A DNA stretch of 64,000 nucleotides from positions 32,001-96,000 of the forward strand of contig CAWCPV010000006.1 of NCBI GenBank assembly GCA_963797555.1, read 5' to 3'. Shown here piece after piece: positions 36,036 through 57,099 of the stretch. The notes below the pieces were generated by a model. That model was not told the DNA's origin, did not search any database, and saw only the letters and a list, made by a program, of their open reading frames with translations. Both the position numbers and the translations under genes were made by a program. The stretch comes from an uncultured Gammaproteobacteria bacterium. Lineage in GTDB: Bacteria; Pseudomonadota; Gammaproteobacteria; CAWCPV01. Every line of letters begins with the position of its first letter. Position 1 is the stretch's first letter.

Positions 36036-36249
36036 GAACTACGAACTCGTACTCAGATTCTAGGCCCTGAGCCGCCGCGGGCGCAGGTGTTCCGGCGCCC
36101 GCCGGACCGCCCGCGATTGCAGAAATGTCGGTGCGGCGTTCATGGGTACGGTCAAGGATCTCTGCTGAGGAAGCGGCCGACGCACGGCTCGGGGTATATT
36201 GTGCCGGTGGCCTGCCAGGCCGAACCGCCCCACAAGAAGCGAGTACGCC

Positions 36250-37815
36250 ATGCTCTTCGCCGAGATCGTCGACACCTCCCGGCGGGTCTCGGGGACCCGC
36301 AGCCGCCTGGCGAAGGTCGAGCAACTGGCCCAGTGCCTGAGACGCCTGCCGCCTGAAGAGCTGGAAGCGGGAGTCTGCTATCTGTCGGGCGTGACCCGCC
36401 AGGGCCGCATCGGCATTGGAGGCGCCGCGCTGCGCGACGCCATGCCGGGCAGCGCCGCCTCCACGCCCCGGCTCCCTATCGCCGAGGTGGACGAGACCCT
36501 CACCCGCATCGCAGAAACCTCGGGCGCGGGAAGCACCGCAAAGCGTCTCCAGCTTCTGGGCGGTTTACTCGCCGGGGCGACACGCGCGGAGCAGGATTTC
36601 CTGGTGCGGCTCCTGATCGGAGAGCTGAGGCAGGGAGCGCTGGAGGGGCTGATGGTGGAGGCCGTGGCGCAGGCGGCTCAGGTGCCCGCCGAAGAGGTCC
36701 GCCGCGCCGCCATGGTCGCGGGCGACGTGACGGCCGTGGCCGCTGCGGCGCTGACGGCCGGGACCGACGGGCTGCGGCGTTTCTCCATCCGTTTGCTAGA
36801 ACCGGTCCGGCCCATGCTGGCGCAAACCTCGGAAGACGTGCCGGACGCCCTCGCCCACCTGGGGCGCGCCGCCGTCGAGTTCAAGCTGGACGGCGCCCGG
36901 GTGCAGGTGCACAAGGCCGGCGGGCAGGTCCGGGTGTTCAGTCGCCGCATGAACGACGTGACGCCGGCCGTCCCGGAGCTGGTGGAGGCGGTGCGGGCGC
37001 TCCCTGCCGGAGAGATCATCCTGGACGGCGAGGCACTCGCCATGCGCCCGGACGGGAGGCCGCACCCCTTTCAGGTCACCATGCGCCGCTTCGGCCGGCG
37101 CCTCGACGTCGAGCGCATGCGAGAGAAGCTACCGCTCAGCGTCTACTTCTTCGACTGCCTGTACCTCGACGGCAGTGACCTGACGGGCGAGCCGGCGGCA
37201 AGGCGCTTTCGGGCGGCCTCCGAGACCCTGCCTGCAACCCTGATCATCCCCCGCATCGAAACCGTGGACCCGGATGAAGCGGCCTCCTTCCTCGACGAGG
37301 CCCTGCGGCGCGGACACGAGGGCGTGATGGCGAAGTCCCTGGAGGCCGTCTACGAGGCGGGCAATCGGGGCAGCACCTGGCTGAAGATCAAGCCCGCGCA
37401 CACCCTCGACCTGGTGATCCTCGCCGCCGAGTGGGGACACGGCCGGCGCAGCGGCTGGCTCAGCAATCTCCACCTCGGGGCGCGCGAGCCGGCGACTGGC
37501 GCCTTCGTGATGCTGGGCAAGACCTTCAAGGGGCTGACCGACGACATGCTGCAGTGGCAGACGCAGCGGCTCCTGGAGCTGGAGGTCGCCCGCGACGCTT
37601 ACACGGTGTGCGTGCGCCCCGAGCTGGTGGTCGAGGTCGCCTTCAACGACATCCAGGAGAGCCCCCACTACCCGGCCGGGATGGCTCTGCGCTTCGCACG
37701 GGTCAAGCGCTACCGACCCGACAAGAGCGCCGCCGACGCGGACACGGTCGAGACCGTGCGCGCCATCCACCAAGGCGAAGTTGGGCGCACCCGACCCGAA
37801 GCACATGAACGTTGA
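36250..37815 (+). CDS. ATP-dependent DNA ligase (LigB-like)
   Basis: PMLA, EFKLDGARVQVH (KxDG), ILDGE, FFDCL, EGVMAK, WLKIK, LRFAR. Confidence 0.95.
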   Translation: MLFAEIVDTSRRVSGTRSRLAKVEQLAQCLRRLPPEELEAGVCYLSGVTRQGRIGIGGAALRDAMPGSAASTPRLPIAEVDETLTRIAETSGAGSTAKRLQLLGGLLAGATRAEQDFLVRLLIGELRQGALEGLMVEAVAQAAQVPAEEVRRAAMVAGDVTAVAAAALTAGTDGLRRFSIRLLEPVRPMLAQTSEDVPDALAHLGRAAVEFKLDGARVQVHKAGGQVRVFSRRMNDVTPAVPELVEAVRALPAGEIILDGEALAMRPDGRPHPFQVTMRRFGRRLDVERMREKLPLSVYFFDCLYLDGSDLTGEPAARRFRAASETLPATLIIPRIETVDPDEAASFLDEALRRGHEGVMAKSLEAVYEAGNRGSTWLKIKPAHTLDLVILAAEWGHGRRSGWLSNLHLGAREPATGAFVMLGKTFKGLTDDMLQWQTQRLLELEVARDAYTVCVRPELVVEVAFNDIQESPHYPAGMALRFARVKRYRPDKSAADADTVETVRAIHQGEVGRTRPEAHER

Positions 37816-38087: not shown

Positions 38088-40205
38088 GTGAATCATAGCG
38101 AAATCGTCAGCTTCCTCTGGGGTGTCGCCGACCTGATCCGGGACACGTTCAGACGCGGCCATTACCAGGACGTCATCCTCCCCCTCACGGTCCTGCGCCG
38201 GCTCGACTGCGTCCTGGCCCCGAGCAAGGCGAAGATCCTCGCCACCCAGGCCAGGTTCAAGGGGAAGATCGAGAACCTGGACCCGCAGCTCCGCAAGGCG
38301 GCAGGCTTCGCCTTCTACAACACCTCCCGCTACGACTTCGAGAAGCTCCTGGCGGACGCCCCGCACCTGGCCGCCAACCTGCGCAACTACATCGCCGGCT
38401 TCAGCCCGAACATGCGCGAGGTGATCGAGAAGTTCGACTTCGACAACACCCTCAGCAAGCTCGACGAGGCCGGGCTGCTGTTCCAGGTGATGGAGCGCTT
38501 CAAGAACGTCGACCTGCACCCGGACAAGATCGACAACCCCACCATGGGGACCATCTTCGAGGAGCTGATCCGCAAGTTCAACGAAGCGCTGAACGAGAAC
38601 CCCGGCGAGCACTTCACGCCGCGCGATGTCGTCCACTTGATGGCGGACCTCCTGCTCGCAGGGGACCAGGCCCGAATCCGCAAGCGAGGGGTGGTCCTCA
38701 CGGTCTGCGACCCGTGCTGCGGATCGGGCGGCATGCTCACCATCACCAAGGACCACGTCACGGTCGGCGTTCGCAGCAACAGCGGCGTGGTGCGCGGGCC
38801 CATCAATCCCGACGCCGACATCCACCTGTTCGGCCAAGAGGTGAATCCCGAAACCTTCGCCATCTGCAAGTCCGACCTCTTCATGAAGTCGACCGACGGG
38901 CGGGACGCCGAGAACATTCTCTACGGGAGCACCCTCTCCAACGACCGCCACGCCGCCCGCGGGTTCGACTACCTGATCGCGAATCCCCCTTACGGCAAGG
39001 ACTGGAAGCGCGACGAGGACGCCGTGCGGGCCGAGCACGAGCGCGGCGCGGGCGGGCGGTTCGGGCCGGGCCTGCCGCGGATCAGCGACGGGCAGCTCCT
39101 GTTCCTGCTGCACATGCTGGCCCACATGAAGGCGCCGAAGGACGGCGGCTCCCGCGTCGCGATCATCATGAACGGCTCGCCCCTCTTCACCGGCGACGCC
39201 GGGAGCGGGGAGAGCGAGATCCGCCGCTGGATTCTCGAGAACGACTGGCTGGAGGCCCTGATCGCACTCCCCGAGCAGCTCTTCTACAACACCGGCATCG
39301 CCACCTACGTCTGGGTGCTCACCAACCGCAAGGCGCCCGAACGCAAAGGCAAGGTCCAGCTCATCGACGCGACCTCGTTCTGGGCGCCCATGCGCAAGAG
39401 CCTGGGCGACAAGCGCCGCGAGGTCCCGCGCGAGCGCGCCCAGGACATCCTGAAGATCCTCGCCGATTTTCGGGACGGCGATACCCGGACGGTGGCCAAG
39501 GACGCCAAAGAAGAGGAAGTCGTCGTCAGCCGCATCTTCCCGACTACCCACTTCGGCTTCCGCAAGATCACCGTCGAGCGCCCGCTGCGGCTCAACTTCC
39601 AGGCCAGCCCGGAACGTATCGCGCGGATCGAAGAGGAAAAGGGCTTCCAGACGATCGCGCAGCCCAAGAAGAAAGGCCCCGCCGGGGAGCAAGAGCAGGC
39701 CCAGGGCCGGGCCTTGCAGGAGTCGATCCGCAAGGTGGTGCACGGGCTGCCGAACACCCTCATAAAGGATCGTGCCGAGTTCGAGCGCCTGCTCGACGCC
39801 GTTACGACGAAGGCCGGCGTGAAGCTCCCGGCGCCCGCCAGGAAGGCCGTCCTCTCCGCGCTTTCGGAACGCGACGAGACGGCCGCCATTTGCTGCGACA
39901 AGGACGGCAACCCGGAGCCCGACCCGGAGCTGCGCGATACGGAGAGCGTGCCGCTCGCCGAGCGCGTCGAAGCCTTCTTCGATCGCGAGGTCAGGCCTCA
40001 CGTCCCCGACGCGTGGATCGACACATCCAAACGCGACCCCAAAGACAGCCAGGTCGGTCTCGTGGGCTACGAGATCAACTTCAACCGCTACTTCTACCGT
40101 TACACGCCGCCGCGCCCTCTGGAGGAGATCGAGGCGGACATCCGCGGCATCGAGAGGGATATCGTCCGCATGCTGGCGGAGGTGACCGGATCGAAGGTGC
40201 TCTGA
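38088..40205 (+). CDS. hsdM: Type I RM methyltransferase subunit (m6A)
   Basis: GEHFTPRDVV, DPCCGSGGML, GQE, NPPY, FYNTGIATY, GYEINFNRYFY. Confidence 0.95.
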   Translation: MNHSEIVSFLWGVADLIRDTFRRGHYQDVILPLTVLRRLDCVLAPSKAKILATQARFKGKIENLDPQLRKAAGFAFYNTSRYDFEKLLADAPHLAANLRNYIAGFSPNMREVIEKFDFDNTLSKLDEAGLLFQVMERFKNVDLHPDKIDNPTMGTIFEELIRKFNEALNENPGEHFTPRDVVHLMADLLLAGDQARIRKRGVVLTVCDPCCGSGGMLTITKDHVTVGVRSNSGVVRGPINPDADIHLFGQEVNPETFAICKSDLFMKSTDGRDAENILYGSTLSNDRHAARGFDYLIANPPYGKDWKRDEDAVRAEHERGAGGRFGPGLPRISDGQLLFLLHMLAHMKAPKDGGSRVAIIMNGSPLFTGDAGSGESEIRRWILENDWLEALIALPEQLFYNTGIATYVWVLTNRKAPERKGKVQLIDATSFWAPMRKSLGDKRREVPRERAQDILKILADFRDGDTRTVAKDAKEEEVVVSRIFPTTHFGFRKITVERPLRLNFQASPERIARIEEEKGFQTIAQPKKKGPAGEQEQAQGRALQESIRKVVHGLPNTLIKDRAEFERLLDAVTTKAGVKLPAPARKAVLSALSERDETAAICCDKDGNPEPDPELRDTESVPLAERVEAFFDREVRPHVPDAWIDTSKRDPKDSQVGLVGYEINFNRYFYRYTPPRPLEEIEADIRGIERDIVRMLAEVTGSKVL

Positions 40206-40213
40206 CGCGAAAA

Positions 40214-40304
40214 GTCGGCACGGATATCACAGATGCCGACATTATGTGTTGACACGCCCGTTTGTCCGACGCATATTGCAGGCATGTCACAACAGCGTGC
40301 CGAC
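40214..40304 (+). promoter_or_regulatory. abiE promoter with inverted-repeat operator
   Basis: GTCGGCA(40214)-13 nt-TGCCGAC(40240); TTGACA(40249)-17 nt-CATATT(40272); third TGCCGAC at 40298. Confidence 0.6.
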
Positions 40305-40922
40305 AATTCGAGTCAATCCCCCAAGTCTTCGGAGCCCGTCGACCTGCTTCGCAGCGCCGCTCTGGGTGCCTTCTTCCGTCCGAGCCAGATCCATGCGGCA
40401 GGACTATCGCGCGACCAGCTCCCGGCCCTCGTGCGATCGGGGAAGGTCGAACGAATCGGTCGCGGCCTCTACCGGCTCGCGGACGCCGAGCCGACCGAGA
40501 ACTACTCCCTGGCGATGGCGTGCGCGCGGGTGCCGAACAGCATCGTCTGCCTGCTCTCCGCCCTGCGCGTCCATGGCATCGGCACCCAGGCACCGGCCGA
40601 GGTCTGCCTCGCCATTCCGCACAAGGCGCGCATGCCGCGCCTCCCCGAACTCAAGCTGCGCGTCGTGCGCTTCAGCGGACCTGCTTGGACGTTCGGTGTA
40701 CAGACGACCGCGTTCGAGGGCGTGCCGGCACGGATCACCTCCCCCGCGCGGACCGTGGCGGACTGCTTCCGGTTCGAGCGCCTCGTGGGGCCCGAGGCTG
40801 CGATGGAAGCGCTGCAGGACGCCCTGCGACAGCGGAAGGTCACGATCCCCGAACTCTCGCGCGTGGCGGAGATCCTTCCGTCGCGCCGCCTCAGCGCCGC
40901 GCTGGACACGAGGTTGATATGA
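40284..40922 (+). CDS. abiEi: Type IV TA antitoxin AbiEi
   Basis: wHTH VERIGRGLYRL, CLLSALRVHG, ITSPARTVADCFR; coupled to the toxin. Confidence 0.88.
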   Translation: MSQQRADNSSQSPKSSEPVDLLRSAALGAFFRPSQIHAAGLSRDQLPALVRSGKVERIGRGLYRLADAEPTENYSLAMACARVPNSIVCLLSALRVHGIGTQAPAEVCLAIPHKARMPRLPELKLRVVRFSGPAWTFGVQTTAFEGVPARITSPARTVADCFRFERLVGPEAAMEALQDALRQRKVTIPELSRVAEILPSRRLSAALDTRLI

Positions 40923-41854
40923 CTGCAGACGTGGCGGCGTCGGTCAGGGCCCGTCTCCTGAACCAGGCAAAGGCGAGCGGGGAGGAGTTCGAGCGAACCC
41001 TGGCGCGCTTCGCCGCCGAGCGGCTGCTCTTTCGCCTCGGTGAATCCGCGGCGCGAGACCGTTGCATCCTGAAAGGCGCCAGCCTCCTTGCGGTATGGCT
41101 TCCGGATCCTTACCGGGCAACCCGCGATGTGGACGTGCTGCTCTCGGGACAGGCGGACGACGCCGCGATCCGGTCGCTGGTGGCGGAGATCTGCGCGATG
41201 GCCTGTCCCGAAGACGCCCTCCGCTTCGACCTCTCCAAGCTGGTCGTCGAGACGATCCGGCCCGAGGACGAGTACTCGGGCAAGCGCGCCCGCTTCCGCG
41301 CGTTCCTCGGCAACGCGCGGATCGCCGTGCAGCTTGACCTTGGCGTTGGCGACGCGTTGACCGTACAGCCCGAAGAGATCGTCTACCCGACGATGCTCGA
41401 CACCCTGCCCCCGCCCCGGCTCCGCGCCTATCCGCGCGAGGCGTCCGTCGCCGAGAAGTTCGAAGCGATGGTGAAGCTCGACACGCGCAACAGCCGGATG
41501 AAGGACTTCCACGACATCTGGGCGCTTGTGGGCGCCTTCGAGTTCGATGGCCCGTCGCTCCAGAAAGCAATCGCGGCCTGCTTCGAGCGCCGGGGCACAC
41601 CGTGGACCGATGAACTCCCGCGCGTCCTGACCCCGGCGTTCTACCAGATGCCGGATATGGAGACGCGCTGGCGGAACTACCGCGCGGCGGGTGCCGTGCT
41701 CGCCCCGCTGCCGCCCCAGTTCGCGGTCATCGGAGAGCGCATCATCGAGTTCCTTGGCCCTGTCCGGAGCAGCATCGCCGCGGGAGAGGCGTTCGAGCGT
41801 GCCTGGGCGCCGGGAGGCCCTTGGATGTCTGCCGGACAAGAGAACACAGAATGA
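40919..41854 (+). CDS. abiEii: Type IV TA nucleotidyltransferase toxin AbiEii
   Basis: ASVRARLLN, LKGA..RATRDVD, AEKFEAMV, NSRMKDFHD. Confidence 0.9.
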   Translation: MTADVAASVRARLLNQAKASGEEFERTLARFAAERLLFRLGESAARDRCILKGASLLAVWLPDPYRATRDVDVLLSGQADDAAIRSLVAEICAMACPEDALRFDLSKLVVETIRPEDEYSGKRARFRAFLGNARIAVQLDLGVGDALTVQPEEIVYPTMLDTLPPPRLRAYPREASVAEKFEAMVKLDTRNSRMKDFHDIWALVGAFEFDGPSLQKAIAACFERRGTPWTDELPRVLTPAFYQMPDMETRWRNYRAAGAVLAPLPPQFAVIGERIIEFLGPVRSSIAAGEAFERAWAPGGPWMSAGQENTE

Positions 41855-43719
41855 TCGGCGCCAGCTTCGACAGCACCAAGACCCCGCTTCACGACCTGCT
41901 CGCACGGGCCGACGGCGGCAAGCTCCAGCTTCCGGATTTTCAGCGCGGCTGGGTCTGGGACGACGACCGCATCCGGAGCCTCCTCGCCAGCGTGTCGGTC
42001 TCTTTCCCGATCGGTGCCGTGATGTTGCTCGAAACGGGCGGCGAGCACGTCCGCTTCAAGCCGCGGCCCCTCTCCGGAACGCACGAGCGGCTGCGCCAGA
42101 TCGCGCCCGAGACGTTGATCCTCGACGGCCAGCAGCGGCTGACATCGCTCTACCAGGCGCTGATGAGCGCGGTGGTGGTCGAGACCAAGGACGCCAAGGG
42201 CAAGCCGATCCGCCGCTGGTACTACATCGACATGAAGCAGGCCGTGACTAACGACGACGACCGCGAGGACGCGGTGCTGAGCGTCCCCGAGGACCGCCAG
42301 GTCAAGGCGTTCGGCGGCGAGATCGCTTTGGACGTGACGACACCCGAGCGGGAGTACGGAGCCGACCTCTTTCCCGTGAACCGGATTTTCCAGAGCGCGG
42401 AGTGGCGTCAGGCTTACAACAAGCACTGGAACTACGTACCCGAGAAGATCCAGCTCTACGACGAGTTCGAGCGCGAGGTCATCAAGCGGTTCGAGCAGTA
42501 TCAGGTGCCGGTGATCGAGCTGAAAAAGGAGACACCCAAGGAGGCCGTCTGCCTGGTCTTCGAGCGCGTGAACACGGGGGGCATGGCGCTCAACGTGTTC
42601 GAGCTGCTCACGGCCGCCTTTGCCGCGGACGATTTCCAGCTCCGCGATGACTGGAACGCCCGCGAGCAGCGCCTGAAGGGCCAGCACCCCGTGCTGCGCA
42701 ACCTCCAGAGCGACGACTTCCTCCAGGCCATCTCGCTCCTCGTGACGCAGAGGCGCCGCCACAACACGCTCGCGGCCGGCGTCGCCGTCGACAAGGCGCC
42801 CGGCATCAGTTGCAAGCGCAAGGACATCCTGAAGCTCGAGGTCGCCGACTGGCAGGCATGGGCCGAACGCGTCGAGGCCGGTTTCGTGCGCGCCGCGCGC
42901 TTTCTGTACGGGCAGAAGATATTCAAGGCGCGGGATCTGCCCTACCGCACCCAGCTCGTGCCGCTCGCCGCGATGTTTGTGAACCTCGGCCAGGACGGTG
43001 AGACCGAGGGTGCCCGCCAGCGGATCGCCCGATGGTACTGGTGTGGGGTTCTCGGCGAGCTTTACGGCGGCGCCATCGAGAGCCGCTTCGCGCGCGACCT
43101 GCCGGAGGTGGTCGCCCTGGTGCGCGGCGAGGGGAGCGAGCCGATCAGTATCCAGGAGTCGAGCTTCCAGGCCAACCGGCTGCTGACGCTGCGGACGCGC
43201 AACAGCTCGGCCTACAAGGGAGTCTACGCGCTCCTGATGCGCGACGGCGGGCGGGACTTCCGCACCGGCGAGCCGATCGAAGCCCAGACCTTCTTCGACG
43301 ACAAGGTCGACATCCACCACATCTTCCCCGAGAAGTGGTGCAAGGCGGCCGGCATCGAGCCCGGCACCTACAACAGCGTGATCAACAAGACGGCGCTCGC
43401 CGCCAAGACCAACCGCCAGATCGGCGGCCGCGCGCCGTCGAAGTACCTGCCTGCGATCGAGAAGGCCGCTGGTGTTGGTACCGAGCGTATGGACGAGATC
43501 CTGCGTTCGCATTGCATCGCACCGGGAGAACTGCGGGCCGACCGCTTCTGGGAGTTCTACGCTGCACGCGCCGAGGCGCTGCTCCAGCGCATCGAGGCCG
43601 CGACGGGCAAGACCATCACGCGCGAGCCGGAACTTTTCCGCGCCGGGGTCGTCGCCGAAGTCTACGACGAGGGGCCGGAGGAATGGGACGCCGAGGAGCC
43701 GATCGAGGAGGCGTCGTGA
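41851..43719 (+). CDS. GmrSD-like (DUF262 + HNH/DUF1524) modification-dependent nuclease
   Basis: DFQRGWVW, LDGQQRLTS, FERVNTGG, DIHHIFP..INK..TN. Confidence 0.88.
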   Translation: MIGASFDSTKTPLHDLLARADGGKLQLPDFQRGWVWDDDRIRSLLASVSVSFPIGAVMLLETGGEHVRFKPRPLSGTHERLRQIAPETLILDGQQRLTSLYQALMSAVVVETKDAKGKPIRRWYYIDMKQAVTNDDDREDAVLSVPEDRQVKAFGGEIALDVTTPEREYGADLFPVNRIFQSAEWRQAYNKHWNYVPEKIQLYDEFEREVIKRFEQYQVPVIELKKETPKEAVCLVFERVNTGGMALNVFELLTAAFAADDFQLRDDWNAREQRLKGQHPVLRNLQSDDFLQAISLLVTQRRRHNTLAAGVAVDKAPGISCKRKDILKLEVADWQAWAERVEAGFVRAARFLYGQKIFKARDLPYRTQLVPLAAMFVNLGQDGETEGARQRIARWYWCGVLGELYGGAIESRFARDLPEVVALVRGEGSEPISIQESSFQANRLLTLRTRNSSAYKGVYALLMRDGGRDFRTGEPIEAQTFFDDKVDIHHIFPEKWCKAAGIEPGTYNSVINKTALAAKTNRQIGGRAPSKYLPAIEKAAGVGTERMDEILRSHCIAPGELRADRFWEFYAARAEALLQRIEAATGKTITREPELFRAGVVAEVYDEGPEEWDAEEPIEEAS

Positions 43720-45074
43720 GGGCGGCGAAGAACACCGAGCGTGCGGCGCGGCCAGAGCGTTTCAGGTCCTATCCGGGCTACAAGGACTCGGGGGTCGAGT
43801 GGTTGGGGGAGATTCCCGCGCACTGGGAGGTCGCGCCCGTCTATGCGCGGTACCAGATAGCACTTGGAAAGATGCTCGATGCCAAGCGGGTGACCGGCGA
43901 GTCTTCCGGGCGATACTTGCGCAATATCGATGTCCAATGGGACGCGGTGAACACAGAAGGGCTGCCGGAGATGGACTTCGCCCCGGGGGAGCGCGACCGG
44001 TACCTGATTCGCCCGGGCGACCTGCTCGTTTGCGAGGGTGGCGAGGTCGGTAGAACCGCAATCTGGGGTGGGCAAATCGAGGAGTGCTTTTACCAGAAGG
44101 CGATCCACCGGGTAAGACCGCATTCGGACAAAGAGGCGCCGCGCTTTTTCTACTACCTTATGTACACTCTGGCAAAGCGTGGTGTATTCGTCGCGGGCGG
44201 GAACCCGAACACGATCGATCACCTCACCGCCGTGCAACTGAGGCATTACCGCCTTCCGTTCGCCCCGACTCAAGAACAACGTGCCATCGCCGCCTTCCTC
44301 GACCGGGAGACGGCGAGGATCGATGCGCTGGTGGCGAAGAAGGAGCGGCTGATCGAGCTGCTCCAGGAGAAACGCACCGCCCTCATCACCCGCACCGTCA
44401 CCAAGGGCCTCGACCCGAACGTCCCCATGAAGGACTCCGGCGTCGAGTGGCTGGGGGAAATTCCGGCGCATTGGGAGGTCAGGAAGACGACCTGGATATT
44501 CACGATTGGGAGTGGAACGACGCCCCGGTCTGAGGATCCCGCTTACTACGGTGGTGAGACGCCTTGGATCACCACATCTGAGCTTCGCGAGTCGGAAGTG
44601 GTCGCAACAGAGAAGAACGTCACTGGGGACGCGGTTAGAGACCACCCGAGCCTGAAGGTTCATCCCAAGGGGAGTGTCGCAGTGGCGATGTACGGTGCGA
44701 CGATTGGGCGTCTCGGAATCCTGGGCGTTCCCGCGACAGTTAATCAGGCTTGCTGTGTCTTTAGCAGGCCCAGGGGTATCGAGACGTGGTACTGGTTCTA
44801 TTGGCTGCAGATGCGGCGGCCGTATCTAATCTCGCTTGGCTACGGCGGCGGTCAACCGAACCTCAGCCAGGATCTCTTGAGATCGCTCCGCGTCCCGACG
44901 CCGCCCCTTCTCGAGCAGCGCGCCATCATTTCCTTTCTCGATCTGGAGGCGGCGCGGATTGACGCCCTCATTGCCAAGGTCCGCGAAGCCATCGAGCGGC
45001 TCAAGGAACTGCGTACCGCCCTCATCTCCGCCGCGGTGACAGGCAAGATCGACGTGCGGAAGGAGGTCGCATGA
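43716..45074 (+). CDS. hsdS: Type I RM specificity subunit
   Basis: Two KDSGVEWLGEIPAHWEV repeats, two lower-GC TRDs, EQRAI..FLD, RTALISAAVTGKIDV. Confidence 0.95.
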   Translation: MRAAKNTERAARPERFRSYPGYKDSGVEWLGEIPAHWEVAPVYARYQIALGKMLDAKRVTGESSGRYLRNIDVQWDAVNTEGLPEMDFAPGERDRYLIRPGDLLVCEGGEVGRTAIWGGQIEECFYQKAIHRVRPHSDKEAPRFFYYLMYTLAKRGVFVAGGNPNTIDHLTAVQLRHYRLPFAPTQEQRAIAAFLDRETARIDALVAKKERLIELLQEKRTALITRTVTKGLDPNVPMKDSGVEWLGEIPAHWEVRKTTWIFTIGSGTTPRSEDPAYYGGETPWITTSELRESEVVATEKNVTGDAVRDHPSLKVHPKGSVAVAMYGATIGRLGILGVPATVNQACCVFSRPRGIETWYWFYWLQMRRPYLISLGYGGGQPNLSQDLLRSLRVPTPPLLEQRAIISFLDLEAARIDALIAKVREAIERLKELRTALISAAVTGKIDVRKEVA

Positions 45075-45429
45075 CTCGAATTGCCGTCAAACGGAAATTG
45101 GTGCACCAGGCACGCCAGAGGGTTGGCCGGAGCTTTGAGGCCCTTACACGGAAGTTGCCGAGGCTTCAGTGCGGCGCGAGCGTGCCCTGCTTGGAGCCGT
45201 CAGTCGACTGACGCTCTGCAGACGGTCCTCACCGGCAGTCCGCGGGGCCGTTGTCTTCACCGAAGCCCGCTGACGCAAATAGCTCGGCGGCTTGTTTTCG
45301 GAGGCGCTAACATCCTCGCAGCCAGCGAAGGTGGTTGTCTCCGGCTGGGGTTGTTGGTTAGACTTCACCATTGAAGTCTTAATAGCACTGCGGCTTATTC
45401 AGAGTTTCTGAACAGCGGGGCCTAGCGTC

Positions 45430-46593
45430 GTGCAGCGCGGGGAAACCGGTCGCTACGAGGTCACCAGCGTTGGGGGCGAGCAGGTCCGCGCCTTCGTGCC
45501 GGCCCCGCTGCCGCCAGCCCCGCCGCTCGTCTTGGACGGTCCACTCCAGCAGACGCTCGAATCCGCTGTGCTTGCGGTCGGGCGGCTCGACGGCGTCTCG
45601 ACCCTGCTGCCCGACAAGGCGCTCTTTCTCTATGCCTATGTGCGTAAGGAGGCGGTGCTCTCTTCCCAGATCGAAGGGACGCAGTCGTCGCTCTCGGACC
45701 TACTGCTCTTCGAGCTAGACGAGGCGCCGGGCGTTCCTCTCGATGACGTCGTCGAAGTCTCGAACTACGTCGCGGCCCTGGAGCACGGGCTGGCACGCCT
45801 GCGGGAGGGCTTTCCGCTCTCCAATCGACTCGTCCGCGAGATCCACGGCGTGCTGTTCTCGCGCGGGCGCGGCAGCGCCAAAAATCCCGGTGAGTTCCGC
45901 CGCTCGCAGAACTGGATCGGCGGCAGCCGGCCCGGCAATGCCGCCTTCGTGCCTCCGCCCCACACCGTCGTGCCCGACTGCATGGCGGCGCTCGAGCGTT
46001 TTCTTCACGCCGAGGGCGACGGCCTGCCCGTTCTGGTGCGCGCCGCAGTGGCGCACGTCCAGTTCGAGACGATCCACCCCTTCCTCGACGGCAACGGGCG
46101 TGTTGGACGTCTGCTCATCACCTTCCTGCTCTGCGATGCCGGCCTGCTGCGGGAGCCGCTTCTGTACCTGAGCCTCTATCTGAAGCAGAACCGGACGGCA
46201 TACTACGACCTGCTCGACCGAGTGCGGCGCACCGGTGACTGGGAGACCTGGCTTGCATTCTTCCTGGAGGGGGTAAGGCAGACGGCTGAAGGCGCGGTCT
46301 CGACCGCGCAGCGGTTGGCCGAAACGTTCACGGCCGATCGGGCGAAGATAGAACCGGCCGGCCGCCGGGCCGGCTCGGCGCTACGTGTGCACGAGGCGCT
46401 GAAGAGGCGGCCGATCCTCTCCATGCCCGAGGTCTGCCGAAGCACGGGGCTGTCCTTTCCGGCCGCCTCGTCGGCGATGGACCTGCTCGCAGAGTTCGGA
46501 ACGGTGCGGGAGCTGACCGGGAAACGTCGGAACAGGCTCTTCGTGTACGAACGGTACCTCGCCATCCTCAACGAGGGCACAGAGGCGCCATGA
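45430..46593 (+). CDS. Class II Fic family AMPylase with C-terminal HTH
   Basis: HPFLDGNGRVGR, inhibitory SSQIEG, ELTGKRRNRLF. Confidence 0.93.
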   Translation: MQRGETGRYEVTSVGGEQVRAFVPAPLPPAPPLVLDGPLQQTLESAVLAVGRLDGVSTLLPDKALFLYAYVRKEAVLSSQIEGTQSSLSDLLLFELDEAPGVPLDDVVEVSNYVAALEHGLARLREGFPLSNRLVREIHGVLFSRGRGSAKNPGEFRRSQNWIGGSRPGNAAFVPPPHTVVPDCMAALERFLHAEGDGLPVLVRAAVAHVQFETIHPFLDGNGRVGRLLITFLLCDAGLLREPLLYLSLYLKQNRTAYYDLLDRVRRTGDWETWLAFFLEGVRQTAEGAVSTAQRLAETFTADRAKIEPAGRRAGSALRVHEALKRRPILSMPEVCRSTGLSFPAASSAMDLLAEFGTVRELTGKRRNRLFVYERYLAILNEGTEAP

Positions 46594-49500
46594 GTCCCGA
46601 GATCTCCGAGCGCTCCTTCGAGCAGGCCATCGAGTGCGGGCTGCTCCGGTATGGCCCGGACGCCCGCGCCGGGGACTCGACCGCCGTCCGGGAGACGCCC
46701 CCGCCCTACGGCGAAGCCGTACCGGGCGACTACCGGAAGCGCTCGCCGGAGGACTACGACCGCGCGCTGTGCCTGCTGCCGCGCGACGTCGCGGACTTCG
46801 TCCTCGCCACGCAGCCGAAGGAATGGGAGAAGCTCAAGCAGCACCACGGCGCCGAAACCAAGGAGCGGTTCTTGAAGCGCCTCGCCTCGGAGATCGAACG
46901 GCGCGGCGCGCTCGACGTGCTGCGGAACGGCATCAAGGACTCGGGCTGCAAGTTCCGGCTCGCCTACTTCCGCCCCGCCAGCGGGCTCAACGAGGAGACC
47001 CGGCGCCTGCACGCGGCGAACCTGTTCGCGGTGGTGCGCCAGCTCCGTTACAGCGGGAAAAACGAGAAGAGCCTCGACCTGGCACTGTTCCTGAACGGGT
47101 TGCCGGTCTTCACTGCCGAGCTGAAGAACCCCCTCACCGGCCAGGATGTCGAGGACGCCATCCGACAGTACAAGAGCGACCGCGACCCGCGCGAGCCGCT
47201 CCTCGCCCACGGCCGCTGCCTCGCGCACTTCGCGGTGGATCCGGACCTGGTCTACGTGACCACCCAGCTCGCCGGGCCGAAGACGCGTTTCCTCCCCTTC
47301 AACCAGGGCAAGTTCGGCGGCGCCGGCAACCCGCCCGTGCCGCCCACCCGGGGGGGCTACGCGACCGCGTACCTCTGGGTGGAGACCTGGGCGCGCGACA
47401 GTGTGCTCGACCTCGTGCGCCAGTTCATCCATGAGGTCGAGGAGGAGGACGAGAAGGGGCGCAAGACCGGCAAACGCTTCCTGATCTTTCCGCGCTACCA
47501 GCAGCTCGACGCCGTCCGCCGGCTGGTGGCCCACGCCCGCCAGTACGGGGCGGGGCAGCGCTATCTCATCCAGCACTCGGCTGGCAGCGGCAAGAGCTTC
47601 ACCATCGCCTGGCTGGCCCACCAGCTCTCGACGCTCCACGACGCGGCCGACCGGCGGGTCTTCGACTCCATCGTGGTCGTCACCGACCGGCGCGTCCTCG
47701 ACCGGCAGCTCCAGACCACCATGCGCCAGTTCGAGCAAACCCTCGGCGTGGTGGAGAACATCGACACCACCTCGCGCCAGCTCAAGCAGGCTCTGGAGTC
47801 GGGGAAGACCATCATCGTGACGACGCTCCAAAAGTTCCCGGTGATCGCGCGGGAGATAGGCGAGCTTCCGGGGAGCCGCTTCGCCGTTATCGTGGACGAG
47901 GCGCACTCGTCGCAGTCGGGAGAGAGCACCAAGAGCCTCAAGTCGGTGCTGGCCTCCGCGAGCCTGGAGGAGGCGGAACGGGAGGAGGCCGCAGCAGAGA
48001 CTCCCGAGGAGGAGCTGGAGAACACGGTCCTCGCCGAGATGGAGAAGCGGGGCCGGCTCCCCAACCTCTCCCTGTTCGCCTTCACGGCGACCCCCAAGCC
48101 CAAGACCCTCGAGCTCTTCGGCACGAAGCGCCCCGACGGCAGGTTCGCGCCCTTCCACCTGTACAGCATGCGCCAGGCCATCGAGGAGGGATTCATCCTC
48201 GATGTCCTGGAGACCTACACCACCTACAAGGCATACTGGCGGCTCCTCAAGAAGATCGAGGACGACCCCCGTTACGACAAGAACAAGGCGCAGCACCTGC
48301 TGAAGTCGTTCGTGGAGCTGCACCCGCACGCCATCAACGAGAAGGTGCGGATCATGGTCGAGCACTTCGCCGCCCAAGCGCAGAACGAGATCGGCGGGAA
48401 GGCCAAGGCCATGATCGTGACGCGGTCGCGGCTGCACGCGGTGCGCTACCGGCTGGCGCTGGACCGTTATGTGAAGGAGAAGGGGTATCCGTTCAGGGCG
48501 CTGGCCGCCTTCTCGGGCGCCGTGCAGGACGGCGGACTGGGCTACACCGAGGCGGAGATGAACGGCTTGTCCGAGAGGCAGACCGCCAAGACCTTCGAAC
48601 GCCCCGAGTACCGTTTCCTCATCGTGGCCAACAAGTTCCAGACCGGCTTCGACCAGCCGCTGCTGCACACCCTGTACGTGGACAAGAAGCTCGGCGGGGT
48701 GAACGCCGTGCAGACCCTGTCACGGCTGAACCGCATCCACCCCGGGAAGCGCGGGACGATGGTGCTGGACTTCGCCAACGAGGCCGACGCCATTCAGGCG
48801 GCGTTCGAGCCATACTACGAGACCACGCTGCTCTCGGAGGCGACGGACCCCAACCTCCTCTACGAGACGCAGAGCCGGCTCCTCGCCTTCGGGGTCTATA
48901 CCGAGGCGGACGTGGACCGCTTCGCGAAGGTCTATTTCGACCGCAAGGCCACGCAGGACCAGCTCTATGCGGCCCTGGCCCCGGTGACGGCGCGCTTCTT
49001 CGGGGAGCTGTCCGAAGAGGAGCGGCACGACGTCCGCGGCCAGCTCACCGACTACGTGCGGCTCTACGCCTTCCTGGCCCAAGTGCTGACCTTCGCCGAC
49101 ACGGACCTCGAGAAGCTCTACGTGTTCGCGCGCCACCTGCGGCGGCTCCTGCCCTCCGATCAGGTCGAGCTTCCCCGGCGAGGTGCAGCAGAACATCGAC
49201 ATGGAGTCCTACCGCATCCAGCAGACGGGGAGCGGGAAGATCGCGCTGGAGCGCAAGACCGGCCTGCTCGACCCGATGGGGACGAAAGACCATCCCGGGC
49301 CGGGACCGGAGCAGATCGAGCCACTATCCCGGATCATCGCCGAGCTGAACGAGCGCTTCGGGCTGAATCTCGGCCCCGAGCACCGAGTCACGCTCGGCCA
49401 GATGATCGAGAAGCTGGACGACGACCCGGCCCTCGACGCCAGCGCCCGGGCCAACACGCGCGAGAACGTGAGGCTCACCTTCGACCAGAAGGTGGAGGAC

Positions 49501-50133
49501 GTGATCCAGGAAATCGTCGACTCGAACTTCGATCTGTACAAACGCATCACCGACGACCGGGCGTTCGGCCAAGCGGTCAAGAACTTCCTTTTCGATCAGT
49601 ATCTGCGGACCCACCGGCAGGCGGAGGAGCTGATCAAACGAGGCGAGTCCCGGACCCTCGAGTTCAAGTCCACGCTGCGCTGGAGCCTCCGCGAAAACCG
49701 GATGGACGACAAGGCCGTCACCCATGCCGTCCTCAAGACCATCGCGGCGTTCCTGAACACCGAGGGCGGCGACCTCCTCATCGGTGTCGCGGACGACGGA
49801 TCGGTGGTCGGCATCGAGGTCGACCGGCTCGACAGCGACGACAAGTTCATGCGCCACCTGGCGCAGGCCGTCCGCAACGGCCTGGGCGACCGTGCCAGCA
49901 CCTGCATCGACCCGAGGACCCAGGTCGTCCGGGGAAAGACCGTGTGCCTGGTCACCTGCCAGCGCAGCCCGGAGCCCGTGTTCCTCAAATGGAAGGGAAC
50001 CGAGGAGGGCCCCGGCGGAGATTTCTACGTGCGGAGCGGGCCGGGAAGCGTGAGACTCCGCCCCGAAAGCGCTGCGGAATACATCCGGACGCGGTTTCCG
50101 GAGGCGCCGAAGCGTGGTGAAGATTCGCCGTAG
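46590..50133 (+). pseudogene. hsdR: Type I RM restriction subunit fused to a C-terminal Schlafen/AlbA_2 domain; +1 frameshift at about 49173-49179
   Basis: AELK nuclease motif, QHSAGSGKS, DEAH, FTATP, QTGFDQP, QTLSRLNR; HsdR-like sequence resumes in the next frame (EVQQNIDMESY..LSRIIAELNERFG), then GESRTLEFKST..AAFLNTEGGDLLIGVADDG. Confidence 0.85.
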
Positions 50134-52762: not shown

Positions 52763-53377
52763 ATGCCTCAGGACAGGCTGGGGTTGACCGTGTCCTCCGT
52801 CCCCCACAACGCGTATCCGTTGGGTGCGACGCCCGACCAGCGCTCGCGCGGTCATGTCGAGGCGATTCGCGCCGAGCAGATCCGGCTGCTGCTGCGCCAA
52901 GCCCCGTTTGGCCTCAGCGCTGTCGCCATCAACGCCGTCATCCTCGTCGCCGTCATGTGGGGCGAGATACCGCAAGTCCTGCTACTCACCTGGTTGGCGC
53001 TCACCCTGCTGCTTACCCTGGCGCGTTACCTGCTAACACGGGCTTACTCCCGCGCACAGCCCATGCCCTCCGAAGCGGCGCGCTGGGGGTTCTGGTTCGT
53101 GCTCGGCGCGGGCGTCTCGGGGCTCACCTGGGGCGTGGCCGGCGCCCTCTTCTTCACCCGGCAAAGCTATGCCCACCAGGCATTCCTGGCGTTCGTGCTC
53201 GCCGGCATGTCGGCGGGCGGTGTGTCCACGCTATCGTCCTATCCCGGCACTTACCCCGCCTTCCTGCTGCCGGCCCTGCTCCCCTATACGGGACGGGTTT
53301 TTGCCCAAGGGGGTATCCTGCATACCGCCATGGGGCTGATGCTGGTCCTGTTCTCTGGCTTGATGCTGTGCCTCTGA
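52763..53377 (+). pseudogene. Membrane sensor N-terminus (diguanylate cyclase/kinase type), truncated by ISL3
   Basis: AEQIRLL followed by 5-6 TM helices; ends at the ISL3 junction. Confidence 0.65.
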
Positions 53378-54386
53378 GGGCGGGCTCGGTCTTGATCTCC
53401 TGGCGGCGCACCGCGTCGACCGCCTCGTTGGCGAGCTTGATCACGTGGAAGGCATCGAAGCTCACCGTAGCCTGAGGCAGATGCTTGGCCACCCCGGCGC
53501 GGTAGGCGGCGGACATGTCGATGCACACCTGCTCGATGGCCTGCGGGTCGCCGCCGTGCGCCTTGAGGTCGGCGGCGAAGGCCGCCACGGTGCTCTGGTC
53601 GCGGCCCTCGCAGGCGAACAGCAGGCGTTTTCCCGTGAGGTCATGGAACAGGCTGATGTAGTGCTGTCCACGCCGGGCAGCGGTCTCGTCCAGGCCCACA
53701 GCGCTCACCTGCGAGTGGTCCTCCTGAGCACGGGCCCTGCCTACGTAGTGATCGAGCACCGCCCACAGGCGCTCATCGCCCACGCCCAGGTGCCGAGCCA
53801 CGGTCGCCACCGGCATGGCCTGGCACAGCGTGACCACCAGCGCCTCCATCAGCGCCGTGAAGCCACTCTGTGCGCGCGCCCACGGCGGGTTCGACCTGGG
53901 TCGTCTTGCCGCAGGCCTCGCAGCGCACCCGCGGCAGATGCGCGTGCAGGTACGCCCGTGACTTAAAGAAGCTCAGGTGCTGCCAACTGCGCTCCCGGGT
54001 GTCGTGCACCGCCTGGCCTTGCACTCCGCAGGCCGGGCAAGCAAAGCGGCTGCCCTTGGCAAACGCCACATCGAGGTCGATGCGCCCAGCCTCGGGGTCG
54101 AAGCGCACGTCGGTGACCTCCCAAGGCGCCGTCAGGCCCAGTGCCGTGGTAAACAGATGCGTGGGCCGCACGGTGCTCCCCCCTTGGATGACGACCTGTG
54201 GATTTGTGGACGAGCCCTGCGGAGCGGCCCGCGTCCCAAGGACCGTGTGGACAACCTCCCGGTTGCCCACACTCGCGGGCCTCTCGCCCACAACCCCACA
54301 AGCCCAACCACAAGATGTTGTGATAAGCGACCGGTCAGGGCAGATGCTACTTCACCACCGCGACCCACACAATTTCCGAAAGAGCC
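53375..54386 (-). mobile_element. ISL3 family IS, frameshifted and 3'-truncated
   Basis: GGCTCT terminus at 54386; CPAC..CEAC zinc finger; GLDETAARRG..Y, CIDMSAAY, FDAFHV; frameshift near 53870. Confidence 0.88.
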
Positions 54387-55228: not shown

Positions 55229-57099
55229 GCAGAACTCCTGACATGCGCTACCTAACCGATTGAGAAGGCGCTATAATCGATGCGGGTATCGAAATATAAA
55301 TACGAGACCAGAGGAATGCTATGCCAGGCACCATTGAGCTTCCCTTGCTGCCCGAACAGGCTGTGACATTGGGTCCGCGGTTGACGGTCATCGAAACGCC
55401 CAAGGAACTCGTGTTCATGAATGCCTCCGGTCCGTTGATGAGCTGCGCGCGCACGGATACGACGGCTAAGTGTTACCTCGGGGCGGTGTTCATGACGCAG
55501 GGTTTAGCGAAGGGTGAGGACTTGGCGGCGGTGTTGGGTGTTCACCGCTCGACGGTATTTCGCAACCAGAAGCTGTATCGCGAAGGGGGTCTTGATGCCA
55601 TACGCGATGGCCGAGGCCATGGTGCGCCGCGTCGTGGGCATAAGCTCACCGATGAGGTTTTGCCGATCGCTCAGGCGTGCTTGGACCAAGGGTGCTCGCA
55701 GTCGCAGGCCGCGCGTGCGCTCGGTGTGAGTGAGACGGCGGTGCGCCATGCGATCAAGACCGGACGGCTGCGCCGCTCGCCAACAGGCGGCGCAACTAGC
55801 CGCGGCGTTGACCGCCCAGTGGGCGCAGGGGGAGCCCGATGAGCTGGGCATACTGTACGTCGACGGTCACGTCCATGCCTACACGGGGCGCAAGCATCCG
55901 CTGCCTAAGACGTTGGTGCAGAAACGCCGCCAGTGTCTGCCCGCCTCGACGGATGTTTGGGTGCATAACGGAGCGGCCGAGCCGGTGTTCTTCGTCACCA
56001 GCCCCCTCAATGGACACCTCTTGGCGCTGATCGAGCAGGAGGTCATTCCCCAGGCGCGCCAGCAGATCGGCCCCGACCGGACGCTGACCTTGGTGTTTGA
56101 CCGTGAGGCTTGGAGCCCCCAGTCCTTCCAGCAGTGGCACAGCCAAGGGGCCGAAGTCATCACGTATCGCAAGGGTAAACAAACGCCCTGGGACCCGGAG
56201 GACTTCCGCCCCTTAAGCGTCGAGCACCACGGTAAGTCTGTGACCTATAGTCTGGCCGAGTGCAGCGTGCAGGTCATCGCTGCCAATCGCAAGCAACCCG
56301 CCTTGTGGATGCGCGAGATCCGCCGCTTATGCAAAAACGGACATCAGAGCGCGATCCTGACGACCCGGCAGGACTTACCTGCCGCAGAGATCGCCCATCG
56401 CATGTTCGGCCGTTGGCGCCAAGAGAACTTCTTCAAATACCTGCAGGACGAATTCAACATCGACCACTTGAGCACCTATGCCACCGAACCAGCCGATCCT
56501 GAGCGGATGGTTCCCAATCCTGAGCGCCGAGCGCTGATAAAATCGCTCCAGGCAACCAAGGCGCAGCTCGGCAGAGCCTACGCCCAGCGTGGCAAGCACC
56601 AACGTAACAGGGCATCGACGGCGAAGCAAGAGAAGGCGACAGAGGCCATCGAACGATTGGAAAGGCAATGCGAGCAACTCAGCGAACGCATCAACGCGAT
56701 GGAAAAGCGCGTGCCATTGAAGAGCATTTATGAGGCGGACAAGATCGTACATCACGAACGCGAACGAAAAACCATTACCCGGCTCATCAAGGTCGTCGCT
56801 TATCGCAGTGAGAGTTGTCTCGCGAGCATTGTCGAACCCTTTTTCGTGCGCCACGACGACGAAGTTCGCGCCTTCCTCAAAGCCGTGTTCTGCTTACCCG
56901 GCGAGATTATCCCGGATTACCAGCGCCATGAATTGCGGGTGCGTCTCTACGGCTTGGCCAATAATCGATCTCAACAAGCTCTCATCGCTCTTTGCGAATA
57001 TCTGAATACCCAGCAGATGAAATACCCTGGCACCCACCTGCCCCTGGTCTACGACACCGCCCAGTCGCATTGAATTTAGCGCCAAGTCAGGAGTTCTGC
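55229..57099 (+). mobile_element. Unclassified DDE IS with terminal IRs; transposase internally deleted/frameshifted
   Basis: IRs GCAGAACTCCTGAC (55229) / GTCAGGAGTTCTGC (57099); HTH ORF 55321-55842 and DDE ORF (YVDGH, VFDRE, RWRQENFFK) to 57073. Confidence 0.8.

Follow-up and report, generated by a model that had tools for sequence, protein, structure and literature searches.

A type I restriction gene of the widespread HsdR-Schlafen family, probably inactivated by a single inserted base

The 64,000-nt stretch of an uncultured gammaproteobacterial genome analysed here (the window; all coordinates are positions in it) holds a type I restriction-modification (RM) operon in which hsdR is read in two frames: the nuclease/helicase part ends at a one-base shift, and a C-terminal region with a Schlafen/AlbA_2 domain continues in frame +1. 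The locus raises the question of whether these parts belong to one protein and, if so, whether the extra base is a mutation, an assembly error or a recoding device. The account that we favour, with somewhat better than even confidence, is that of a recently inactivated hsdR of a widespread HsdR-Schlafen subfamily, carrying a lesion specific to its lineage. The window copy adds little by itself, being a broken allele that shows how often hsdR is disrupted in this family.

One hsdR gene in two reading frames

The original prediction, made from the DNA letters and their open reading frames (ORFs), had placed an HsdR C-terminal region and a Schlafen domain in one frame ending at 50133, uncoupled from the nuclease and helicase by a one-base frameshift. 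Translation, Pfam matches and the G+C content of third codon positions (GC3), used as a marker of the true coding frame in a window of 66% G+C, all bear this out, with frame 0 valid to 49178 and frame +1 thereafter. The gene is laid out as follows:

46590..49178, + strand: 5' part of hsdR in the original frame, with the PD-(D/E)xK nuclease, the SF2 motor and the start of the helical C-region (translation, Pfam, NCBIfam, PADLOC)
49177..49179, + strand: site of the one-base insertion, CGG-C ahead of GAG (alignment A1 and 75 related loci)
49179..50120, + strand: out-of-frame tail translated after the break, 314 codons (translation; GC3 0.41)
49180..49611, + strand: C-terminal helical region of hsdR in frame +1, aligning with about residues 862-1005 of full-length relatives
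49612..50133, + strand: Schlafen/AlbA_2 domain and stop in frame +1 (Pfam match at 49645-50058)

From the ATG at 46590 the translation is clean HsdR sequence as far as RHLRRLLPSDQVELPR (...LLPSDQVELPR), which ends at 49178, and the frame-0 tail that follows is Arg/Pro/Gly-rich nonsense with its first stop at 50120. Frame +1 starts at 49180 with EVQQNIDMESYRIQQTGSGK, also reads EVQQNIDMESYRIQQ, and further on contains GESRTLEFKSTLRW, KRGESRTLEFKSTLRW and AAFLNTEGGDLLIGVADDG before its stop at 50131-50133. GC3 in frame 0 is 0.88-0.98 up to the block at 48990 and drops to 0.30-0.64 from the block at 49140 on; from that block on frame +1 has 0.88-0.96 (0.76 in the last block), and the downstream coding part as a whole has 0.89.

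The upstream part is 86% identical, without a stop, to residues 2-862 of the full-length relative P0002, and the downstream part is 83% identical to the same protein. The extra base is the sole lesion across 3.5 kb. Because there is only this one lesion and the downstream part is about as conserved as the upstream part, the lesion, if real, would be recent.

The upstream part is recognisable as HsdR by domain content, motifs and setting. Pfam matches it to SWI2_SNF2 (1.6e-28), HSDR_N (7.9e-16), ResIII (3.5e-15) and T1R_D3-like (2.2e-12). The nuclease domain is the one covered by HSDR_N, and D...ELK, which we take to be the nuclease-motif residues, is visible in LDLALFLNGLPVFTAELK; the SF2 motor shows GSGKS and DEAH in the translation, with R-subunit domain 3 covered by T1R_D3-like. 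The PADLOC profile REase_I (hsdR) matches at 7.9e-36, and NCBIfam TIGR00348 (hsdR) reaches 205.9 bits, under its curated cut-off of 284.55, with the 861-aa N-terminal part only. Both hsdM and hsdS lie alongside in the operon, and what the gene lacks for a complete HsdR subunit is an intact frame, owing to the one-base insertion at about 49179. The closest and only solved sequence relative is the HsdR of EcoR124I (PDB 2w00 and others; E 1.7e-16), which has nuclease, SF2 motor and helical C-region in the same sequence along the protein but is 1,038 aa long and has no Schlafen domain; its similarity to the window HsdR is low and lies mainly in the motor.

Two candidate starts from which the downstream part might be translated independently appeared unconvincing, as the GTG at 49183 has no spacer after GGCGAG and the ATG at 49201 lies 15 nt past GAGGTG. 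An open frame of 821 codons on the opposite strand (46203-48668, -) was set aside as a shadow frame of a high-G+C gene.

Spread and architecture of the HsdR-Schlafen family

Full-length HsdR+AlbA_2 proteins, for which the original prediction proposed a search, were found in large numbers; the fusion is frequent among environmental bacteria and standard within this clade. Run against longer proteins, the 320-aa downstream part gave 2,183 matches among 6,896 candidates; the best 120 of these all carry PF04326 at 79-85% identity, and most are fused proteins of ~1,150-1,200 aa with the full set of HsdR domains, going by source names such as 'type I restriction enzyme R subunit', 'RNA-binding domain-containing protein' or similar. 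With the 863-aa upstream part as query, 116 of the 120 best matches had PF04326. Of 313 candidate stretches in contigs representing one genome per species, 272 encoded a relative, in most cases as a single ORF of ~1,180 aa, and we kept 80 of these loci for detailed comparison.

These 80 loci come from Acidobacteriota, Gemmatimonadota, Proteobacteria, Nitrospirota, Methylomirabilota, Cyanobacteria, Planctomycetota, Chloroflexota, Spirochaetota and other phyla, at 70-85% identity, and 40 same-class relatives of the source genome yielded no copy above 46% identity. High identity across many phyla together with the lack of close copies within the class thus indicates horizontal spread of the family. 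At least three records without a metagenome-assembled genome (MAG) label, Pelomicrobium sp. G1, Microcystis elabens FACHB-917 and Cyanobium sp. Morenito 9A2, also contain it and may be cultured.

The fused ORF is uninterrupted in 43 of the 55 loci with at least 2.7 kb of upstream DNA and broken, at scattered places, in the other 12. Two natural variants of 1,016 aa (P0272 and P0338), 82-84% identical to P0002, end cleanly just before the Schlafen domain, which argues that HsdR is complete without it. In three other loci (L056, L078, L082) the nuclease/motor part of hsdR is deleted while the C-region and Schlafen part is still open, and two long-read MAGs (L081, L087) show several frame shifts within the same gene. 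The scattered positions of the 12 breaks speak against a hotspot at the window's break site; the single exception is P0345, a metagenomic protein of 920 aa with 4 member sequences, whose sequence becomes aberrant directly after ELPREV, two residues beyond the break in the window. The source genome has two more hsdR-like remnants, both free of Schlafen sequence (C7:3507-5205 and C4:844634-846178; L009-L012), of which one spans three frames with an internal gap and the other has a TGA at the contig end.

Thousands of such fused proteins are already present in databases with their domains annotated, and the family is uncharacterised. A literature search returned no text describing a Schlafen domain fused to the C-terminus of HsdR, with the proviso that the 55-composition table of bioRxiv 10.1101/2025.07.24.666596 may list one; the supplement of PMC13462974 gave no match for HsdR, ResIII, 'type I restriction' or SWI2_SNF2, nor for three peptide strings.

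A Schlafen/AlbA_2 domain with an intact acidic centre

By hidden Markov model (HMM), fold and motif, the C-terminal domain is a Schlafen/AlbA_2 member of PF04326, as had been proposed. SLFN_AlbA_2 (PF04326) is the only Pfam match in the C-terminal part (E 4.6e-19; 69.5 bits vs a cut-off of 25.3; profile positions 1-117 of 118). The acidic residues described as intact are indeed present, both in E-x4-E-x-K and as the Asp that follows:

49645..49668, + strand: E-x4-E-x-K catalytic motif ESRTLEFK (alignment A2; SLFN11 7fex)
49792..49794, + strand: conserved Asp of GVaDdG, the third acidic residue (D61 in 99 of the 102 sequences of A2; SLFN11 7fex)

In A2, an alignment of 102 diverse domain relatives, E12 is conserved in 100 sequences, E17 in 102 and K19 in 101, and in the AFLN box both F and N are invariant (102/102). 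A phmmer search aligned ESRTLEFK with ESqsiEFK of SLFN11 7fex, and the Asp of GVADDG with the D of its IGVDD (E 0.0057). The AlphaFold2 model built from A2 has a pLDDT of 95.1 and a pTM of 0.90, and Foldseek matched it to 31 PDB chains at E<=0.001, led by 3lmm, SLFN13, SAMD9, 2kyy and SLFN11; all named matches (DIP2311, SLFN13, SAMD9, a RecG-related N-domain, SLFN11, 14, 12 and 5) are AlbA_2/Schlafen proteins. A two-copy (homodimer) prediction from A2 scored 0.00 vs a mark of 0.42, which counts neither for nor against binding.

Searched alone, the domain matched 6,401 cluster representatives at E<=0.001, 200 of them at E<=1e-30, and PF04326 was present in 18 of 18 scanned domain relatives. The nearest relatives outside HsdR (43-55% identity) likewise hold the domain at their C-terminus. 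Within the same Schlafen clade its partners are an unannotated region of ~270 aa, SNF2 helicase, TPR repeats, S1 domains, RNase HII, and HsdR with peptidase S24. We regard the Schlafen domain as a module added to HsdR, and probably a catalytic one. Examples of C-terminal Schlafen domains are P0175, P0239, P0242, P0244 and P0190, on HsdR+peptidase S24, SNF2 helicase, RNase HII, S1-domain and TPR proteins. Many proteins of ~430 aa carry the same Schlafen clade behind an unannotated N-terminal region; they were rejected as free-standing HsdR C-regions, their resemblance to P0002 being confined to the Schlafen domain.

The premise that Schlafen domains are RNases is upheld by the accessible text of three recent sources, in which prokaryotic members are shown to be defence tRNases that cluster with RM genes (PMC13462974; bioRxiv 10.1101/2025.07.24.666596; 10.64898/2026.05.29.728809). 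According to the same text, mutation of the E-x4-(D/E)-x-K centre demonstrates that it is needed for tRNA cleavage in CbCash, and the motif is named as the nuclease motif of SLFN-pAgo and of bacterial Schlafens.

Origin of the extra base

In the account that we favour, one base inserted at about 49179 would shift the frame of hsdR, and translation from the ATG at 46590 would give a product missing its final ~315 residues (helical C-region and Schlafen domain) and ending in a nonsense tail of 314 residues. Methylation and the AbiE and SoFic genes embedded in the operon would be left intact. The expected phenotype would be methylation without restriction, and the source genome would thus have lost restriction.

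The position of the insertion follows from alignment A1, in which full-length relatives read ELPREVQQNID at the break site. The window has GAG CTT CCC CGG, one extra base, and then GAG GTG CAG. As the Arg codon CGG is still in frame 0, the insertion is in CGGC (49177-49179); this is inside the 13-mer to which the extra base had been assigned earlier, but outside its CCCC run. The break site could be checked in 75 of the 80 loci (five were omitted in which the match began later or upstream DNA was absent), and all 75 read LP(R/L/K)EVQQNID through in a single frame. The codon preceding GAG was CGC in 55, CGG in 5, CGA in 4, CGT in 4, CTC in 4, CTT in 2 and AAG in 1. On the favoured account the break would be a lesion specific to this lineage and no recoding device.

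The original prediction had called for reads at 49171-49180. The extra base is reproduced exactly in independent k-mer contigs from two sequencing runs: in run X1 a 151-nt contig spans 49039-49189 with the extra base and 0 differences, and in run X4 a 209-nt contig spans 49071-49279 with the extra base, 1 substitution and no gap. Two contigs from run X3, belonging to more distant relatives, are without one base at 49177.

Several points weigh against the favoured account. The support from reads is thin, at a k-mer depth of 2.4 in X1 and 3.4 in X4; these runs are two samples of a single study, one of them perhaps the source of the assembly, with the platform unrecorded, and in no sequencing run did the share of sampled words exceed 0.30. 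A genome-wide GC3 scan of the source assembly (5.35 Mb, 20 contigs, 8,587 long open frames), which recorded as events open frames that lose their coding signal to another frame stop-free, returned 112 raw frame switches and 50 after a filter that removes antisense shadows. Among six sampled switches, two split one Pfam domain across frames (CitMHS, positions 40-233 / 237-336; ACR_tran, positions 2-305 / 305-604) and one parts nSTAND1 from FGE-sulfatase; the other three gave no decisive match, two having no Pfam match and one a weak upstream-only match. With so many switches genome-wide, an error-prone assembly is a live possibility, and the genome is either an indel-prone assembly or that of an organism rich in pseudogenes. 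As for function, that loss of the C-terminal region of HsdR, which docks on the methyltransferase, abolishes restriction is background from EcoR124I and EcoKI, and the putative RNase activity of the Schlafen domain and any link of it to RM are carried over from relatives.

Frame switches in the source genome include those at C3:~764,300, C16:~75,500 and C4:~545,750. The switch sites of the CitMHS transporter and the AcrB-like pump are without long homopolymers, one having GATC and the other CCCGGG/CCGCGG. An rpoC family search as a control of assembly quality gave no match in this 84.6%-complete genome and was useless for that end.

The strongest competitor is an assembly or consensus error, in which case the organism would have an intact HsdR-Schlafen gene of ~1,180 aa; we regard this as unlikely, while granting it a substantial share of the probability. 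It would explain the candidate same-strand frame switches, at least 50 of them, 47 leading to frame +1, and the two sampled switches that cut one Pfam domain, which lie in ordinary transporter genes and, at both sites inspected, outside long homopolymers. It would also agree with the contiguity of 5.3 Mb in 20 contigs, which suggests a long-read assembly, and with the long-read MAGs L081 and L087, which show multiple shifts in this same gene. The excess of +1 events, however, is expected from the GC3 method, which favours them because out-of-frame stops are rare there. The exact recurrence of the extra base in the X1 and X4 contigs stands against an error, and four of the seven listed X1 records are exactly 151 nt long, which suggests short reads.

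On balance we judge the frameshift to be probably a real mutation. A second copy of the allele was not among the 120 listed of 1,031 matches to the 316-aa downstream ORF, none of which exceeded 85% identity; that search was restricted to proteins of near length, and the listed matches were mostly contig-end fragments. An exact 43-nt search for the allele in metagenome contigs gave 0 matches and was uninformative.

A programmed +1 frameshift by slippage at CCC-C, as the original prediction had suggested, or phase variation that restores or regulates the full-length protein, is very improbable: CTT CCC C does look slippery and the downstream frame is intact and GC3-rich, but none of the 75 relatives needs a shift, so that the conserved site expected of a prfB-like device is missing. 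In the alignment the extra base falls behind CGG, and a slip at CCC-C would give ELPGEV, with a G that is never seen at this position in the relatives (R in 68, L in 6 and K in 1). In frame 0 the site is followed by neither a stop nor a known stimulator, and a typical contingency locus would need a longer run than C4/G2.

How the intact family may work

Bacterial Schlafens, in the accessible text of the sources cited above, are latent tRNases activated by a fused or partner sensor, usually via oligomerisation (PMC13462974; bioRxiv 10.1101/2025.07.24.666596; 10.64898/2026.05.29.728809). More than half of the defence-linked prokaryotic Schlafens adjoin RM or other nuclease systems, and the accessible part of PMC13462974 states their activation to be an open matter.

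By analogy, in an intact HsdR-Schlafen protein the type I complex would serve as the sensor for the tethered Schlafen effector, which would cut tRNA or rRNA when the condition of that complex permits it, and the result would be a second, abortive-infection layer. Two triggers fit equally well, complexes engaged or colliding on unmodified DNA and jamming by anti-restriction proteins. We put forward only tentatively, as a proposal with a chance well under half, a two-weapon enzyme that joins a translocase/nuclease to its own tRNA-cutting effector, switched on by engagement or jamming so that failed restriction turns into abortive infection. If it were true, the frequent breaks in hsdR (12 of 55 loci and the window copy) could reflect the cost of a self-toxic RNase.

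A narrower version of this idea, the guard envisaged by the original prediction, is doubtful. Here the Schlafen domain would be silent on a working RM complex and unleashed when Ocr, ArdA or Stp-like proteins inhibit the complex, as in the case of PrrC, which the accessible text of PMC12707154 describes as a tRNase encoded within a type IC locus and switched on when EcoprrI is inhibited. That precedent is matched by the place of the domain, directly behind an HsdR region that aligns with the C-terminal part of type I R subunits, and by the type IC origin of the sole solved sequence relative, EcoR124I HsdR. The characterised prokaryotic Schlafens, on the other hand, are described in the accessible text as activated by oligomerisation on positive sensing (cA4, target DNA or a phage protein) and not by release from an inhibitor, and activation by DNA-engaged or colliding complexes fits equally well.

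More doubtful still is a role of AlbA_2 in HsdR as a nucleic-acid-binding or DNA-directed module that aids restriction, with no RNase effector. AlbA_2 has long been annotated as DNA-binding, 'putative DNA binding domain-containing protein' is among the source names, and the structural matches include the DNA-bound AlbA_2 of SAMD9 (7ksp) and SLFN5 entries titled DNA/RNA binding. Yet E-x4-E-x-K and the Asp are near-invariant in the 102 relatives, and pure binding would not need them, which makes a purely binding role less likely; moreover, S1 RNA-binding and RNase HII domains occur as fusion partners of the same domain clade, and the 1,016-aa variants show HsdR to be complete without the domain.

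Schlafen tRNases were shown to act in bacterial defence only in 2025-2026. A family in which a Schlafen domain is joined covalently to a type I motor makes the activation of RM-linked Schlafens directly testable, with the Schlafen-less variants as built-in controls.

Comparison with known systems

HsdR-Schlafen resembles the prokaryotic Schlafen defence nucleases (pSlfn, with RorSlfn5 and DUF262-Slfn; Cash; SLFN-pAgo), as the accessible text on them goes, in PF04326, E-x4-(D/E)-x-K, the AFxN box and the Gly-rich core, and in being an effector fused to a sensing module, often beside RM genes. It differs in joining the Schlafen domain, at the C-terminal end, to a complete type I R subunit, and in lacking any GHKL ATPase, Ig-like, Csx15 or Argonaute part. 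For the defence nucleases, tRNA cleavage and growth arrest have been demonstrated; for HsdR-Schlafen an RNase activity is a prediction.

Published links between Schlafen and RM, in the accessible text of two sources, consist of genes that lie side by side, of fusions to methyltransferases and of a fusion to HsdS (PMC13462974; 10.64898/2026.05.29.728809). The Schlafen-methyltransferase fusions (PMC13462974, cluster 3) also join Schlafen to an RM component, in their case another subunit. The Schlatpase-HsdS fusion (10.64898/2026.05.29.728809) likewise involves another subunit and carries a GHKL ATPase that is absent from HsdR-Schlafen.

HsdR-Schlafen also has mammalian counterparts to its nuclease domain: SLFN11, SLFN13, SLFN14 and SAMD9 share with it the fold (Foldseek probability 1.00) and the acidic motif, and in SLFN11 the nuclease is likewise paired with a helicase. 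In contrast to these, HsdR-Schlafen has the C-lobe only and an SF2 translocase N-terminal of the nuclease, at 13-21% identity.

PrrC is made up of an ATPase N-domain and an anticodon nuclease domain. Pfam, NCBIfam and PADLOC scans of the operon proteins gave no match to a PrrC-like protein, and HsdR-Schlafen is not a PrrC relative. PrrC/EcoprrI likewise has an RNase embedded in a type I RM locus, PrrC being the back-up when restriction fails (PMC12707154, accessible text). PrrC is a separate gene of unrelated fold triggered by T4 Stp, whereas the HsdR-Schlafen domain is fused.

Operon and neighbourhood

The operon upstream of hsdR is a translationally coupled type I RM system with the following genes:

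38088..40205, + strand: hsdM, type I methyltransferase (Pfam HsdM_N 1.4e-22, N6_Mtase 5.8e-55)
40233..40922, + strand: abiEi-like antitoxin gene (tblastn relatives; named from its position ahead of AbiEii)
40919..41854, + strand: abiEii, AbiE nucleotidyltransferase toxin (Pfam AbiEii 9.5e-40; ATG at 40919 overlaps the abiEi stop)
41851..43719, + strand: DUF262/GmrSD_N gene (Pfam GmrSD_N 2e-29; PADLOC PDC-M55C, HEC-05)
43716..45074, + strand: hsdS, specificity (Pfam Methylase_S 3.8e-29; PADLOC Specificity_I 1.2e-112; GTG at 43716 behind GAGGAGG)
45430..46593, + strand: SoFic-type Fic gene (Pfam Fic_N, Fic; PADLOC SoFic 1.2e-117; stop overlaps the hsdR ATG)

Four gene junctions have 4-base overlaps, and a 355-nt spacer separates hsdS from the SoFic gene. 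An ORF within this spacer, orf97 (45081-45374), was treated as non-coding, having no Pfam or PADLOC match, no tblastn match in the 80 loci and a GC3 of 0.60. The operon thus encloses three extra defence modules, AbiEi/AbiEii, the DUF262/GmrSD_N gene and SoFic.

Among the 43 related loci for which 9 kb or more of sequence upstream was available, hsdM was a neighbour in 38, hsdS in 38, abiEi in 33, abiEii in 31, SoFic in 20 and the DUF262 gene in 1, the usual order in the family being hsdM-abiEi-abiEii-hsdS-(SoFic)-hsdR. Upstream of the operon in the window lies an ATP-dependent DNA ligase gene (36199-37815, +), and downstream are an ISL3 transposase fragment (53154-53849, -) and a Transposase_29 gene (55730-57073, +).

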